This document shows, piece after piece, positions 1-5,509 of a stretch of DNA of 56,812 nucleotides (positions are counted from its first letter, which is position 1; each line of letters starts with the position of its first letter). The stretch comes from a bacterium. GTDB taxonomy: Bacteria > Zhuqueibacterota > Zhuqueibacteria > Zhuqueibacterales > Zhuqueibacteraceae. A model generated the notes under the pieces. The model searched no databases and was not told where the DNA came from. It saw only the letters and a program-made list of their open reading frames with translations. The translations under genes were made by a program, and so were the position numbers. Location: contig JBIOXB010000092.1 in NCBI GenBank assembly GCA_044869275.1, positions 1 to 56,812 of the forward strand. Reading direction: 5' to 3'.

Positions 1-15
1 CCAACGGACTCACTA

Positions 16-21
16 TGTCAA
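16..21 (-). promoter_or_regulatory. -35 box TTGACA in the element right end (half of the circle-junction promoter)
   Basis: Plus TGTCAA at 16-21 is a perfect TTGACA on minus, pointing out of the element. Confidence 0.75.
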
Positions 22-40
22 GTTAAAAATCAGCTTTTTT

Positions 41-1270
41 TTAATTTTGGTTTTGATTGGCGATGAGATGTTTGGCCATTTGTGCCAAGAAGAGATTTTC
101 ATCATAACAAGTTCTGTTCTGCCACATGGCGAAGAGAATGCGCAAATGCAAGTTTGCTAAACAGCGCAGGGCGTGGCTGTGGCTTTTACCGCGATTGCGG
201 TGTTTTTGATAGTAAGCCTTCGCCCACGTGGCTTGAGCGAGCGAGCTAAACGCAAGATGCTGCATCACATCGCGATAGAATTTGTTGCAGGCGCGGCGAT
301 AGTAGATGATTTTGAAGTCGTTCCCACTTTTTTCAGTGACCGGGCAGGTTCCGGCTAAACCCTGCAGCTCGCTGACTGCAGCATAGCGGGCGCGATTATC
401 ACCGAAGAGCGCCAGCAAGCGTGCGGCGGTCAGATATGAGGCACCCGGATAGCTGAGAAAAATCTGGCCATCGGGATGCTGAGTTACCAGTTGCTGTAAA
501 CGGGTGGCATAAGTTTCAAGATCGGTTGCTAATGCCAGCAATTGTTTGGCACACAACAACGCTTTGAGCTGTTTGACGCGAATAAGCACGCCGGGAACAG
601 GCAGATGCTTTTGGTGAAGCAACTGATAAATGTTGACGATGGTGTTGTGATTGCGCAAATGATGTTCTTTGAAAAACGCGGCTAATTGTTGTTGCGACAG
701 TTCACGAGCAGAATCAAAATCCGGATACGCCTGCAGAAAGGCCAGGGCATTAGCGCAGGCGACATTCGCGAAAAAGTCGATATACTCCGGATAGTATTCC
801 TTCAACGTCGAACGCAGACTATTACTCAACGCCACTTGCCACGCAGTGGCGTCATGATGCGCTTGTGCCAAAAGACGAATTTCGCGCACGGCGGGCGAGC
901 CAAAGTCCACTGGCCGCCAACAGGCCGTATCCGTGCGCAACACGTCGGCGATGACGAAGGCATCGAAGTCGTCATCGCGCGCGCCACTGGAACGATAGCG
1001 CTTGCGAAAGCTTTTCATGGAACCAGGAAACATCGCCCAGACCGCATAGCCGGAGTCGAGCAGAAAATCCACGACCAACTGATTCGGCGTTTCGATACCG
1101 ATTTTAAAGGCCGCGAGATCTTCCGAGCATTGGCGGAGTTGAGAGCGAAGCTGTTCAAAACCGGCAACATTATTTTTGATGGTGAGCTTTCCTACGATAA
1201 GCGTGCCGTGTTCGTCTAAAATTTTGACGTCATGTTTTTGATCAGCCCAATCAATCCCGACATAGTACAA
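41..1270 (-). CDS. IS110 family transposase/recombinase
   Basis: 409 aa; N-terminal RuvC-like DEDD motifs (GIDWADQKH, GIETP, RDDDFDA); C-terminal domain with GTCPVTEKSG serine motif; GGAG 6 nt before the TTG start. Confidence 0.95.
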   Translation of the reverse strand: MYYVGIDWADQKHDVKILDEHGTLIVGKLTIKNNVAGFEQLRSQLRQCSEDLAAFKIGIETPNQLVVDFLLDSGYAVWAMFPGSMKSFRKRYRSSGARDDDFDAFVIADVLRTDTACWRPVDFGSPAVREIRLLAQAHHDATAWQVALSNSLRSTLKEYYPEYIDFFANVACANALAFLQAYPDFDSARELSQQQLAAFFKEHHLRNHNTIVNIYQLLHQKHLPVPGVLIRVKQLKALLCAKQLLALATDLETYATRLQQLVTQHPDGQIFLSYPGASYLTAARLLALFGDNRARYAAVSELQGLAGTCPVTEKSGNDFKIIYYRRACNKFYRDVMQHLAFSSLAQATWAKAYYQKHRNRGKSHSHALRCLANLHLRILFAMWQNRTCYDENLFLAQMAKHLIANQNQN

Positions 1271-1292
1271 GATAGGCTCCCGGTGATTTAAT

Positions 1293-1448
1293 CTCTGAAA
1301 GAAGGAGAAGCCGACTTAATCCTATATTGGCCCTCGAAGGGCGGCTCACTATGGAAGTTTGCGCTTCTTGTGCGAAACCTTGAGGCACTCCGTTGGTGGT
1401 GGTCGAGCCACGGGATTAAAATGGCCTTCAAAGTTCCGTCCTTCAGAG
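1293..1448 (-). ncRNA. putative bridge RNA (target-binding and donor-binding loops)
   Basis: Terminal stem 1293-1300/1441-1448; two internal loops, each around a 4-bp hairpin with a YUCGA loop (1399-1411, 1330-1342); flanking segments match 1-8 (8/8), 2631-2639 (7/9), 9-17 (9/9) and 2626-2633 (8/8). Confidence 0.8.
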
Positions 1449-1454
1449 CAAGTT

Positions 1455-1871
1455 TCAAGCTTCGTTGTCGTGGCGGAGATGTTGCAGAATGGTTTTAAGA
1501 CTTTGAAAATCTTGCGTTGCGAAACGATGGAACTGGCCGCGTGCAGTTACTGGCACCGGCGCTGGTTCGGGTAAAGACAACACCTGAAAAATGCCATTTT
1601 GATAAGCGATGAACGAACACTCACAGAGATGATTGCGGGCGCGCACATAGTCGTCGACTTCCATTTTGAGAAATTGACAAATGCGCTCGTAATCGTAAAA
1701 ACTCACGCCGTTGCGATCGGCGACGGTGATCAGAAAATAATACAACAGCAATTCTTCTTGCGCGAGCCGATGGAGAAAACCGCGATGCAAGAAGTTGTGA
1801 TCAATCCAGCCGAAGGTGCATTGGCGAATGTTACGAATACGCTCAGGACAAATGGGGCTTGCGCTACGCAT
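1455..1871 (-). CDS. accessory winged-helix protein, replication-initiator-like; hypothetical
   Basis: 138 aa; LLYYFLITVADRNGVSFYDYERICQFLKM..DYVRARNHL..CSFI fits the HTH_36/phage replication-initiator N-terminal pattern by eye. Confidence 0.65.
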   Translation of the reverse strand: MRSASPICPERIRNIRQCTFGWIDHNFLHRGFLHRLAQEELLLYYFLITVADRNGVSFYDYERICQFLKMEVDDYVRARNHLCECSFIAYQNGIFQVLSLPEPAPVPVTARGQFHRFATQDFQSLKTILQHLRHDNEA

Positions 1872-1956
1872 CGTGCGTGCTCCGATCAGAAGGATGCAAG
1901 TGATGACCTTGGTCGTGACAGCCTCAAGATAAGAACAAAACGTGCGTCAAATCAAT

Positions 1957-2142
1957 CGCGTCCATTTTTACAATCACGCCGCAGCTGCGCCCGGAAACGC
2001 GTTATCGCCTTGAAAAACTTGAAGTGCGACCAACAACGCGTCCATTTTTACAATCTTGGCGGAGGCCTCCAGTGAACAGGGTGTCAACAAATAAGTGCCT
2101 GATTTGACAGGGTGATAGGAGAACGCGTCCATTTTTACAATC
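1957..2142 (+). repeat. three identical 19-bp direct repeats CGCGTCCATTTTTACAATC
   Basis: Copies at 1957-1975, 2037-2055 and 2124-2142; the last two extend to 23 bp identity. Confidence 0.95.
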
Positions 2143-2465
2143 TTTTCGCCAGCCACGGACGTGTTCTGGAGTCGGCGCTGGTAGTTGCGAAGGCGCTGCT
2201 GTTCGCGATTTTTCTGAACGTACTCGGGATGGTGATCGCGATATTCTTTCTGATAGCGGTGCAGGGGGCGCTTACGCCGCCATAGTTTCAGCGCTGTTCT
2301 TTGATGGGCGCGATAGCAGGGGTGCGCCGACAAGTTTTCTCTTTGCCAGAGACGTTTGCGTTCACGTTGACACGCCTCGTCACTGCAAAACTTTTGTTCG
2401 CCTTTAAGGCGCGGGTTCGCTGGCTTTTCCAAGCGGCAGTTTTGGCACCGAATGGTCAGTAGCAT
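1974..2465 (-). CDS. accessory Zn-finger, Arg/Lys-rich hypothetical protein
   Basis: ATG at 2465 after GGAGAG; CQNC...FCSDEAC motif, basic helical region, KIVKMDA twice. Confidence 0.7.
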   Translation of the reverse strand: MLLTIRCQNCRLEKPANPRLKGEQKFCSDEACQRERKRLWQRENLSAHPCYRAHQRTALKLWRRKRPLHRYQKEYRDHHPEYVQKNREQQRLRNYQRRLQNTSVAGEKIVKMDAFSYHPVKSGTYLLTPCSLEASAKIVKMDALLVALQVFQGDNAFPGAAAA

Positions 2466-2617
2466 CGAGGCTCTCTCCAAAATATGAGAGCTCAATCAAA
2501 GCTTCTGATGCTGAAGCGCAAGACCAACCCGAAACAAACGGATCAACAACAAAGCACGGTTTTCAAAGAACAAGAATAACAGACAAGTTAGATTAATTTC
2601 CCTGAATGACCTGGATC

Positions 2618-2626
2618 AAGATAACA
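2618..2626 (-). promoter_or_regulatory. extended -10 box TGnTATCTT in the element left end
   Basis: Plus AAGATAACA is TGTTATCTT on minus; lies exactly 17 nt from TTGACA after end-joining through the TCC core. Confidence 0.65.
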
Positions 2627-2755
2627 TATAGGATCGAAAGACGACCAACGGACTCAAAATAGAATCCGTTAGGCAGTTTTTGTTTTGAAACTACCCCAAA
2701 GGGGTCCTGTTTTCAGCTCGATGAACAATCCCGTGTCGCATTTATCAGATTGAAT

Positions 2756-3019
2756 ATGCACGAATACTCTCTCATCAACGATCTGATGCGCAAGCTGGGG
2801 ATCATTGCCAGCATGCATCACACCCAGAAAATTCTCGGGGTAAAGATCAAGCTGGGCGCGTGGGCACACATTTCCCCGGATCATTTGCGCGAGCACTTTG
2901 TGCAGGCCGCGCGCGGCACTGCGGCGGAAAGCGCGCGGCTGGAGATCGAAGTGTTGACTGACACCTTCGATCGCCATGCGCAGGAAATCATTTTGGACAG
3001 CGTCGAAATCGAGGACTAA
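2756..3019 (+). CDS. hypA: hydrogenase maturation nickel metallochaperone HypA (short, Cys-free)
   Basis: MHEYSL N-terminus and EIILDSVEIE C-terminus; directly upstream of hypF. Confidence 0.8.
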   Translation: MHEYSLINDLMRKLGIIASMHHTQKILGVKIKLGAWAHISPDHLREHFVQAARGTAAESARLEIEVLTDTFDRHAQEIILDSVEIED

Positions 3020-3022
3020 GTC

Positions 3023-5509
3023 ATGCCCGCAGCTCTTCTTCACGCACGCCCTGCGGGGAGGCGTGAAGGGCCAATCCTGCGTCTGCGCATTGTAATCCGC
3101 GGCGCCGTGCAGGGCGTGGGATTTCGCCCTTTTGTTCACCGGCTGGCGCGCAGTTTGGGCTTGACGGGCTGGGTTTGCAATTCCACACAGGGCGTTTTCA
3201 TCGAAGTCGAAGGCAGCCAAACTCAACTGGACACGCTGCTGTTGCGCGTGACCACGGAACTGCCGGCGCGCGCATTCATTCAGAGTTTGGAATCATCCTT
3301 TCTCGATCCCCAAGGCTACACTTCTTTCGAGATTCGCGAAAGTCTCCCCGCGGGAGATATCGCGGCGCTCATCCTTCCCGATATTGCCACCTGCTCTGAT
3401 TGTCTCGAAGAAATAATCGATCCGGCCAATCGCCGTTATCAGTATCCCTTCACCAACTGTACGCACTGTGGCCCGCGCTTCAGCATCATCACCGCCCTGC
3501 CCTATGACCGTTGCCACACCACGATGAGAGATTTCGTGATGTGCGCATCATGCCGGGCGGAATACGGCGATCCCGATGATCGCCGCTTCCACGCGCAGCC
3601 CAATGCCTGCCCGGCGTGCGGGCCGCATCTCGAATTGTGGAATCACGAGGGCTTGGTGCTGGCAGCGCAACATGAAGCTTTGCTCGCCGCGGCCGAGGCG
3701 CTTTTGCGAGGGCAGATCGTCGCCATGAAAGGCCTGGGCGGATTTCAGTTGCTGGCCGACGCGCGCAATGAGGAAACGGTGCAGCGACTGCGCCGGCGCA
3801 AACATCGCGAAGAGAAGCCCTTGGCGTTGATGTATCCGAACCTCGACCTGGCGCGTGCGCATTGTGAAATCTCGGATCAGGAAAAACGCCTGCTGCTTTC
3901 GCCCGAATCCCCCGTCATTCTTCTGCCTCGCAAAAAATGTGATTCACGGTCCGCAAGCCGTCATTCAAATTGCGAGATCGCGCCGGCTGTCGCGCCGCAT
4001 AATCCTTATTTTGGTGTCATGCTGCCTTACACACCATTGCATCATCTGCTGATGGCTGAGTTGAGAATTCCGCTCGTGGCCACCAGCGGCAATCTCTCCG
4101 ATGAGCCAATTTGTATAGACGAACGTGAGGCGTTGCCACGGCTTGGCGGCATTGCAGATCTGTTTCTCGTGCACAATCGCCCGATTGCGCGGCATGTGGA
4201 TGACTCCATCGTGCGCCTGATGATGGGGCGCGAGTTGGTGTTGCGGCGAGCGCGCGGCTATGCACCCCTGCCCGTCAATCTGCAACAACCAGTGCCTGTG
4301 ATTTTAGCTGTGGGCGCGCATAAGAAAAATACCATTGCATTCGCCGCCGGCGGCCAAGTCTTTGCCAGCCAGCATATCGGTGATTTGGAAACCGCGCAAG
4401 CTTTCGCGGCTTTTCGCTGCGTGATCGCTGATTTCGAACGGCTTTATGAGATTCGCCCCGTTGCCATCGCCTGCGACCAGCATCCTGAATATCTTTCCAG
4501 CAAGTTTGCGCGGCAGTACGAGAATGCGGGGCCGGCAGGCCGTTTGTCCAGCGCACAGAATGGCGCATCCAAAAAGATGAGGGTTATCGAAATCCAGCAT
4601 CACTTTGCTCATGTGGCCGCATGCATGGCCGAAAACCAGCTCGAAGGGCCGGTGTTGGGGGTCTCATGGGATGGCACCGGCTACGGGCTTGATGGCAGCA
4701 TTTGGGGCGGAGAATTCTTGCGGGCAACGGATACAAGTTTCGAACGCGTGGCGCATGTGCGCACCTTTCGCCTTCCCGGCGGGGAACGAGCCATCAAAGA
4801 ACCGCGCCGTGCCGCGCTCGGCTTGCTCTATGAGCTCTTCGGCGATGCGGTTTTTGCCCATCAGGAATGGGCGCCGGTGCGCGCTTTTTCCGCACCGGAG
4901 CTCGCCGTCATGCGCAAAATGCTCGAGCACAAACTCAATACCCCGCTCACTTCCAGCGCTGGACGGCTTTTCGACGTGATTGCATCTGTGATTGGATTGC
5001 GACAACAAACGAAGTTTGAAGGGCAGGCAGCAATGGAGCTGGAATTTGCATTGGAAGGATGCGAAACGGAAGCAAAATACCCGGTGCAGATTACGAACGG
5101 CCGAAACCGGATTGCGGGTGCGATGACACGCCAGCACGATGCCGAAATGCAAAATCAAAAGCCCGCCACCATCATTGATTGGGCACCCATGGTGCAGCTA
5201 ATTCTGCACGAAGTGCAAGACGAAATTCCGGCCGCGCAGATTTCGGCAAAGTTCCACAATACACTTGTCGAGGCGATCGTGCAAGTGGCGCAATATGCCG
5301 GCGAGGAACGAATCGTGCTGAGCGGTGGTTGTTTTCAGAATAAATATCTGACCGAGCGTGCGATCCGCCGTTTGCGCCAAGAGGGCTTCCGCCCCTACTG
5401 GCACCAACGCTTTCCGCCGAACGACGGCGGGATTGCGCTGGGTCAGGCGATCGCAGCCGCGCGGGGAGAGCAAAAACAAAAAGCAAAAAGCAAAGAGCAA
5501 AGCGCATAG
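3023..5509 (+). CDS. hypF: carbamoyltransferase HypF
   Basis: Acylphosphatase GAVQGVGFRPFV, Zn fingers CTHCGPR and HAQPNACPACGP, QHHFAH, PPNDGGIALGQ. Confidence 0.97.
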   Translation: MPAALLHARPAGRREGPILRLRIVIRGAVQGVGFRPFVHRLARSLGLTGWVCNSTQGVFIEVEGSQTQLDTLLLRVTTELPARAFIQSLESSFLDPQGYTSFEIRESLPAGDIAALILPDIATCSDCLEEIIDPANRRYQYPFTNCTHCGPRFSIITALPYDRCHTTMRDFVMCASCRAEYGDPDDRRFHAQPNACPACGPHLELWNHEGLVLAAQHEALLAAAEALLRGQIVAMKGLGGFQLLADARNEETVQRLRRRKHREEKPLALMYPNLDLARAHCEISDQEKRLLLSPESPVILLPRKKCDSRSASRHSNCEIAPAVAPHNPYFGVMLPYTPLHHLLMAELRIPLVATSGNLSDEPICIDEREALPRLGGIADLFLVHNRPIARHVDDSIVRLMMGRELVLRRARGYAPLPVNLQQPVPVILAVGAHKKNTIAFAAGGQVFASQHIGDLETAQAFAAFRCVIADFERLYEIRPVAIACDQHPEYLSSKFARQYENAGPAGRLSSAQNGASKKMRVIEIQHHFAHVAACMAENQLEGPVLGVSWDGTGYGLDGSIWGGEFLRATDTSFERVAHVRTFRLPGGERAIKEPRRAALGLLYELFGDAVFAHQEWAPVRAFSAPELAVMRKMLEHKLNTPLTSSAGRLFDVIASVIGLRQQTKFEGQAAMELEFALEGCETEAKYPVQITNGRNRIAGAMTRQHDAEMQNQKPATIIDWAPMVQLILHEVQDEIPAAQISAKFHNTLVEAIVQVAQYAGEERIVLSGGCFQNKYLTERAIRRLRQEGFRPYWHQRFPPNDGGIALGQAIAAARGEQKQKAKSKEQSA

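Follow-up and report, generated by a model that had tools for sequence, protein, structure and literature searches.

An IS110-family element with a predicted bridge RNA placed behind a conserved two-gene cassette

Introduction

Bridge RNAs have been known since 2024 and now form an established, extensively catalogued class, and IS621 is the described element against which we read the locus reported here. In the parts of the IS621 reports on which we draw, the left guides of the RNA pair with the bottom strand, and are thus read as sense, the right guides pair with the top strand, and the core takes part in each pairing (Durrant 2024, PMC11208160). Excision of IS621 reconstitutes a promoter at the junction of its right and left ends, with the RNA start site (PMC11208160). 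The catalytic residues of its recombinase are D11, E60, D102, D105 and S241 (Hiraizumi 2024, PMC11208158), and its excision is less efficient than its insertion (Hiraizumi 2026, PMC13626964).

Here, we follow up the prediction of such an RNA in a 56,812-nt stretch of bacterial DNA (the window), which is contig C92 of a 255-contig genome. Every mechanistic feature of an IS110 bridge-RNA element that could be tested in the sequence was found. We consider it highly probable that the element is one of two identical IS110 copies, and that the transcript of positions 1293-1448 is a bridge RNA guiding a DEDD/Ser recombinase. Between the left end of the element and this RNA lies a cassette of two small genes and three direct repeats, which was also found in transposons of an unrelated family.

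Results

An IS110-family element present in two copies

The element occupies window positions 8-2632 on the minus strand (2,625 bp including one core), and the window starts about 8 nt outside its right end. From the left, the minus-strand order is the zinc-ribbon gene, the three repeats, the winged-helix gene, the bridge RNA and the recombinase gene. The features are as follows.

1..5, minus strand: right target flank (GTTGG); the contig ends here, with two assembly continuations, contigs C177 and C178
6..7, minus strand: core CC at the right junction, from the junction alignment and empty paralogous sites
8..40, minus strand: right end of the element; CATAGTGAG (17-9) plus T8 is the left-donor sequence
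41..1270, minus strand: IS110-family recombinase, 409 aa, TTG start, with DEDD_Tnp_IS110 and Transposase_20 domains
1293..1448, minus strand: predicted bridge RNA, 156 nt, with a closing stem around a target-binding arm and a donor-binding arm
1320..1327, minus strand: right donor guide ATATAGGA, antisense to TCC-TATAT at the left end
1345..1353, minus strand: left donor guide CATAGTGAG, sense to the right end
1389..1398, minus strand: right target guide CACCAACGGA, antisense to TCC-GTTGGTG
1413..1421, minus strand: left target guide TTTTAATCC, sense to the left flank plus core
1455..1871, minus strand: winged-helix accessory protein, 138 aa (Pfam HTH_36, 4.3e-07)
1958..1974, minus strand: direct repeat R3 (ATTGTAAAAATGGACGC), out of the ORF frame, just upstream of a -35-like TTGATT
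1974..2465 (to 2495), minus strand: zinc-ribbon accessory protein, 163 aa from ATG (163-173 aa), four Cys followed by long basic helices
2038..2054, minus strand: direct repeat R2, inside the zinc-ribbon ORF
2125..2141, minus strand: direct repeat R1, inside the zinc-ribbon ORF
2466..2630, minus strand: left end of the element, beginning TATATGTTATCTTG at 2630
2631..2632, minus strand: core CC at the left junction, from the junction alignment and empty paralogous sites
2633..2672, minus strand: left target flank, within a REP-like repeat

The first 127 nt of the window are also found at the ends of two other contigs, which yields two right flanks (TCCGTTGG followed by TGAAG in C177 and by AGAGC in C178), and contig C22 terminates in a second left junction, where TTTTTTAATCC is followed by TATATG. 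The second left junction and the two right flanks indicate two copies of the element in the genome, identical across window positions 1-2634 and divergent beyond. Paralogous copies of the target repeat read TTTTAATCC followed by GTTGGAG, uninterrupted at the insertion point. They thus represent empty sites and place the junctions at 2630/2631 and 7/8, with only CC on both sides. Since the empty sites read ...AATCC directly followed by GTTGG..., this is a simple insertion at a short core, without target duplication beyond CC. The shared core had been predicted as TCC, which proved wrong: CC is constant at nine left and 11 right junctions across relatives, the base preceding it is T, A or G, and the core is therefore the dinucleotide.

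In the best-matching DNA run, possibly the source sample, one unitig corresponds exactly to window positions 1-2635 at a depth of 19.4. The depths of its flank pairs are 11.7+15.5 and 14+11.2, and against these sums of 25-27 no excess depth of the element was seen, contig depth being a crude measure. Neither a joint of the right and left ends nor an empty site was present in the contigs of four DNA runs from one study; contigs miss rare forms.

The recombinase and its relatives

The recombinase matches the Pfam domains DEDD_Tnp_IS110 (PF01548, 2.7e-29) and Transposase_20 (PF02371, 1.6e-08), and scores 146.3 bits against the cut-off of 140 for NCBIfam NF033542, “IS110 family RNA-guided transposase”. 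When aligned to the IS621 chain 8wt6_A, residues D7, D100, D103 and S315 fall on D11, D102, D105 and S241. E60, in a GIETP motif, corresponds to E60 of IS621; it was placed by the motif, as the printed alignment is gapped there. All ORFs of the element and all catalytic residues are intact. The start codon is TTG (1268-1270), and ATG stands at the same position in close relatives with a printed start (the start of L088 is unreadable).

A homologue search, in which species genomes and metagenome contigs were each scanned once, recovered 160 loci. Ten of these, with 52-70% recombinase identity, make up the close relatives (L005, L006 and L085-L092), and nine of the ten include upstream DNA. The winged-helix gene is present in all nine.

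These comparisons bear on whether the locus is a working element. A true bridge RNA could belong to an element that is immobile or dependent on help in trans, with the two extra genes as passive cargo. Such a state would suit the lack of any junction or circle contig (a form that contigs would miss if rare), the TTG start where relatives have ATG, and the 7/9 left site in which the window copy sits. It is at odds with the identity of the two genome copies over 2,634 nt, the integrity of ORFs and catalytic residues, and the commonness in metagenomes of related contigs of about 2.5-3 kb, which fits a multi-copy repeat. Moreover, the winged-helix gene has been kept in nine of nine relatives across 52-70% recombinase identity, which argues that it is not casual cargo. 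We thus see only a slim chance for an immobile element with passenger genes.

Element ends and a predicted junction promoter

Two ORFs precede the bridge RNA, which starts 1,182 nt in from the left end. The same left-end motif is found about 1.24-1.48 kb upstream of the recombinase start in seven relatives (1,744 nt in L005). In cassette-less distant relatives only some 70 nt separate the left end from the RNA, which would suggest a short canonical IS110 here too, with a left end near 1450-1520 and with the zinc-ribbon and winged-helix genes as chromosomal neighbours. This reading is very hard to maintain, since the right donor guide matches TCCTATAT at 2633-2626 and not a site near 1450, the two copies share their sequence up to 2634, the empty paralogous sites put the left junction at 2630/2631, and the seven relatives have the motif at a comparable distance.

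Both donor guides of the original prediction agree with these ends. In the second loop, CATAGTGAG at 1345-1353 equals the right end (17-9) at nine of nine positions, and ATATAGGA at 1320-1327 is complementary to TCCTATAT (2633-2626) at eight of eight. The left donor guide omits the T preceding the core. It tracks variants of the right end among relatives, where GTGAG is replaced by GTAAG (L089, L092) or GTAGT (L091). For the right donor guide, a changed left end in L107 is compensated by a changed guide; as the left end is near-invariant in the close clade, covariation of this guide rests mainly on distant relatives.

The ends also contain the halves of a predicted circle-junction promoter, with TTGACA at 21-16 (minus strand) in the right end as the -35 half, and TATCTT at 2623-2618 (minus strand), preceded by TG, as the -10 half. 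When the ends were joined in silico, TTGACA, a 17-nt spacer and TATCTT or TATATT appeared in all seven elements with both ends known, with TG at -15/-14 in six of them. We infer that joining of the ends reconstitutes a promoter. No sigma-70-like promoter was called on the minus strand within positions 1-2750.

Fold and guide covariation of the bridge RNA

The original prediction described a terminal stem enclosing two internal loops, and all its strings and coordinates are correct on the minus strand. The stem and both loops are present in the minimum-free-energy fold of the window sequence, whose z score of -2.18 is modest on its own, and in the consensus fold of 10 homologues. This consensus (the window and nine relatives of 52-70% recombinase identity, all of which keep the two-loop fold) comprises 33 pairs, 14 of them with compensatory changes on both sides. 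The closing stem appears in each of the 10 individual minimum-free-energy folds. A covariance model built from these 10 RNAs (R1) and run over 28 loci matched seven more distant, cassette-less relatives, in each case directly upstream of the recombinase gene. Rfam 15 gave no match at E <= 1 over window positions 1-3200. We also considered the closing stem as a peculiarity of the cassette clade; this was rejected, as four of the seven cassette-less relatives likewise fold with a closing stem.

The order and strand logic follow those of IS621 as set out in the parts of PMC11208160 that we used: the target loop precedes the donor loop, left guides are in sense and right guides antisense. In the first loop, TTTTAATCC matches the left flank TTTCGATCC (2639-2631) at seven of nine positions, and CCAACGGA, within 1389-1398, is complementary to TCCGTTGG (8-1) at eight of eight. 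The second genomic copy, in C22, has a left-guide match of 9/9, and the right guide matches the C177 flank at 10/10.

We then compared guides with flanks across elements. For the right target guide, matches to the own right flank, out of 10, were 10 and 9 for the window copies, 10 for L090, 9 for L085 and L092, and 8 for L086, L089 and L091; L006 and L088 reached 7/10, and the own flank of L006 was not its best match. There are five distinct versions of this guide, each matching its own right flank, with 8-10/10 in the GTTGG class, and none of the four diverged guides (L088, L089, L091, L092) scores above 7 with a foreign flank. The left target guide matched its own flank at 8/9 in L092, at 7/9 in L089 and, after a 1-nt shift, at 8/8 in L088, and only at 6/9 in L006 and L085 and 7/9 in the window copy. 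For five diverged right-target guides and three diverged left-target guides, the own flank was matched better than that of any other element. The distant relatives L101 and L008 both show 9/9 matches between left guide and flank.

In permutations with one representative per guide class, the true pairing alone reached the observed sum, for the right guide (1/720) as for the left (1/120); with small samples of related elements, these values describe a pattern and are not strict probabilities. Covariation of guides and flanks in homologues, on which the prediction had staked itself, was thus observed.

To assess chance matching, the 156-nt RNA was shuffled 20,000 times. The 7/9 left-flank match occurred in 3,605 shuffles, one 8/8 match in 72, the 9/9 match in 9 and the other 8/8 match in 32; all four never occurred together. 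The 7/9 match is therefore weak when taken alone (18% of shuffles), and the other three are not. That all matches arose by chance in a structured 5' leader of the recombinase mRNA is a practically negligible prospect: it could draw on the fold z score of only -2.18 and on the 18% frequency of the 7/9 match, but it fails against the 0/20,000 shuffles with all four matches and the covariation of the fold, the target guides and the donor guide. Overall, the predicted fold, the pairings and their covariation support 1293-1448 (minus strand) as encoding a genuine bridge RNA of an IS110-family element.

The insertion target is a REP-like repeat

When up to 3 mismatches were allowed, the predicted target TTTTAATCCGTTGGTG was found at 130 places in the genome, and a reversed control at 37. 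At least five of the 10 target sites listed lie within a repeat at least about 130 nt long, one half of which is the C22 flank and the other the C178 flank. The left flank of the window copy contains a hairpin of the same motif (CTAACGGA.../...TCCGTTGG, 2672-2645) followed by a T-rich run, which characterises the target as a REP-like, terminator-like repeat. The target had been given as ~TTTTAA-TCC-GTTGGT and is better written TTTTAAT-CC-GTTGGTG.

The repeat, seen at 2645-2672 and at about 130 genomic places (e.g. L165-L176), is a REP-like or MITE-like composite in which several (A/G)ATCCGTTGG units are arranged in both orientations. It is this composite repeat that serves as the insertion target, and several of its copies are unoccupied. 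Approximately 120 nt from the insertion lies a hypA-hypF pair (2750-3019 and 3023-5509, plus strand), with the element upstream of it and pointing away. The HypA ORF, of 89 aa, covers positions 1-67 of the 112-position Pfam profile, and its C-terminal metal site may be missing.

A conserved cassette between the left end and the RNA

The three 17-nt copies of the direct repeat lie 87 and 80 nt apart; two of them encode KIVKMDA and the third follows the stop codon. Repeat and spacing are the same in L006 and L085, with small changes in L086, L090, L091 and L092. A zinc-ribbon homologue was found by tblastn in six of the nine close relatives, and L088 and L089 have a diverged Cys-rich ORF in its place. 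In L005 (225-984), an ECF-type sigma factor (Sigma70_r2/r4) and a familyless ORF replace the zinc-ribbon gene and the repeats; this locus keeps the winged-helix gene, the bridge RNA and the recombinase. Neither cassette gene was found in the other 150 loci (at most 39% recombinase identity), many of which include too little upstream DNA.

For the zinc-ribbon protein, searches of Pfam, NCBIfam and PDB profiles revealed no relative, Foldseek gave nothing at E <= 0.001, and the Atlas yielded only “hypothetical protein” clusters. For the winged-helix protein, Foldseek returned only generic MarR/CRP-type winged helices (E >= 0.006), nothing was found by PDB profile search or in the phage collection, and there were weak matches to the PHROG “replication initiation protein” (E 0.012 and 0.044). 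Its family comprises 1,270 clusters at 50% identity (E <= 1e-10), with no name in the sources searched. Most relatives of the winged-helix protein among clusters P0002-P0120 are on contigs of which the longest measure about 2.5-3.0 kb, the size of the element, which is expected of a collapsed multi-copy repeat. Eight metagenome contigs that we examined have chromosomal flanks, not circle junctions.

Two observations offer weak hints of a link between the winged-helix protein and the repeats. In the predicted recognition helix, position 80 holds Asn or Lys in five cassettes with the ATTGTAAAAATGG repeat, Asp in seven others and Arg in one, a pattern that cuts across overall winged-helix similarity. 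Read by eye, a -35-like TTGnnT stands within a few bases of the last repeat in all eight cassettes of the ATTGTAAAAATGG type, followed 17-18 nt further by a -10-like hexamer in the seven of them with enough spacer; the promoter tool made no call.

A quick IQ-TREE tree of recombinases had 36 rows, L113 and L064 being left out for internal stops. On this unrooted tree, one change suffices to explain the cassette label (support 89), and both single and multiple acquisition of the cassette are compatible with it.

The cassette in other transposons

Among 167 genomes of the same phylum searched for the winged-helix protein, 13 contained it, including the window's genome and two unpublished ones. 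According to Pfam, the downstream partner is a divergent IS110 recombinase in four loci (L201, L204, L206 and L207) and an IS21-type IstA/IstB pair in four others (L198, L203, L205 and L209). Genome G090 contains a unit of zinc-ribbon gene, winged-helix gene, istA and istB of 3.62 kb in five copies with 99.75-99.86% identity (L198:2175-5798, and in L196, L197, L199 and L200). Its 15-nt repeat and 87/80 spacing are identical to those of the window, in contrast to protein identities of only 39-47%. In other lineages, the corresponding place holds three to four lineage-specific repeats of 15-24 nt, spaced 50-87 nt apart. The same four-gene layout is found on replicons of Caballeronia sp. SBC1 and SBC2 (L211 is plasmid NZ_CP049160.1), with the first two genes annotated as hypothetical.

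Across 14 cassette loci from other genomes, the covariance model R1 detected no RNA at E <= 0.01. The recombinases of L201, L204, L206 and L207 share about 24% identity with that of the window over the aligned part, and a spacer of 180-210 nt follows the cassette. In L201 this spacer (3385-3585) folds with z = -1.91 and has no R1 match; guides were sought there and none could be assigned. These four spacers are probably bridge RNAs of a different type.

Discussion

In the mechanism that we propose, the first internal loop would pair with both halves of TTTTAAT-CC-GTTGGTG in the many-copy REP-like repeat, and the guides of the second loop with the joined right and left ends. The 409-aa recombinase would exchange strands at CC, whereby a circle is inserted or, less efficiently, an integrated copy is excised. 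The integrated copy would express little: an internal promoter after R3, regulated by the winged-helix protein, may give low levels of the winged-helix mRNA, the bridge RNA and the recombinase, and the winged-helix protein would bind the three repeats and tune this expression. Excision by the recombinase-RNA complex would produce a circle bearing the strong junction promoter, which would drive read-through transcription of both cassette genes, the bridge RNA and the recombinase gene. The bridge RNA would then direct insertion into another copy of the REP-like repeat, at ...AAT-CC-GTTGG....

What the cassette does is a separate matter. The role that we favour is that of a transcriptional regulator or roadblock, to which we give about an even chance. 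A function in replication or maintenance is unlikely, and the rest of the probability goes to some other role. A comparably small probability goes to a portable module recruited by IS110- and IS21-type transposons, adding a property to the excised circle or the tandem-junction intermediate. In its boldest version, the module would be a minimal origin with its initiator, and the IS circle would replicate as a transient episome; in a milder one, it would be a feedback switch or roadblock between the junction promoter and the genes for the bridge RNA and the transposase.

Small zinc-finger or HTH proteins that bind sites in their own element are found in IS1 InsA-type repressors and lambda O/ori iteron systems, and repeated binding sites can sit inside a coding region, as in iteron/Rep origins such as phage lambda O and ori. 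The relationship of the cassette to these systems amounts to a generic winged helix and weak PHROG matches, and its repeats, in contrast to theirs, lie 50-87 nt apart and are not tandem.

As a bridge-RNA system, the locus adds one more natural orthologue. Its core is CC, its guides reach 9 and 10 nt, its recombinase has 409 aa and its natural target is known. The system is useful for tool mining and not surprising. More interesting are the position of the conserved DNA-binding cassette, which separates the guide RNA from the junction promoter, and its presence in an unrelated DDE family. Together they suggest that transposition intermediates are subject to an additional, so far undescribed level of control or maintenance. 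To our knowledge, neither the architecture of the element nor the sharing of its cassette with IS21 has been described in the literature that we searched. There is also a practical consequence. One method, in the part of its description that we used, seeks IS110 boundaries within 1 kb of the recombinase gene (10.64898/2026.10.21.760802), and pipelines with such a limit would miss the left end, which lies 1,360 nt upstream.

Compared with IS621 and IS622 of E. coli, as described in the portions of the literature cited above, the element shares the recombinase architecture, in which a DEDD RuvC-like domain is combined with a Tnp domain containing a catalytic Ser; an RNA encoded on the 5' side of that gene, with the target-binding loop followed by the donor-binding loop; a dinucleotide core in every pairing and a REP-type target; and a predicted junction promoter with its -35 in the right end and its -10 in the left end. 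It differs from the published outline of IS621 in a distant protein (phmmer E 1.6e-08; 409 aa here, 326 aa in IS621), in its core (CC here, CT in IS621) and in a closing stem between the 5' and 3' termini of the RNA. Two genes and 1.18 kb also separate this RNA from the left end, whereas that of IS621 starts at the junction promoter. An RNA in a non-coding left end is a feature of the IS621 layout, not of the mechanism, and it is absent here.

The seven cassette-less relatives (L008, L096, L100-L102, L107 and L010; 33-37% recombinase identity) have an R1 match, the same guide logic and a similar start of the left end, with TTATATGTTAATATC after CC. In six of the seven, the left end precedes the RNA by about 70 nt, and neither the zinc-ribbon gene, the winged-helix gene nor the repeats were found in any of them. 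The IS21-type elements resemble the element described here in that the zinc-ribbon gene, three to four repeats and the winged-helix gene immediately precede the transposase genes and share their orientation; they differ in encoding IstA (DDE) and IstB (AAA+), in having no bridge RNA, and in a winged-helix ORF that overlaps the start of istA.

Finally, the element resembles the “expanded” IS110 loci of Hu et al. 2026 (10.64898/2026.08.14.744561), which in the main text exceed 2 kb and contain extra genes inside boundaries defined by the bridge RNA. The terms “helix-turn-helix”, “HTH”, “zinc” and “regulator” do not occur in that main text; the supplements may list cargo families. The cargo described there is variable, and mostly plasmid-derived or adaptive. 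Here, by contrast, it is a small two-gene cassette with repeats, conserved with the recombinase lineage and placed between the left end and the RNA.
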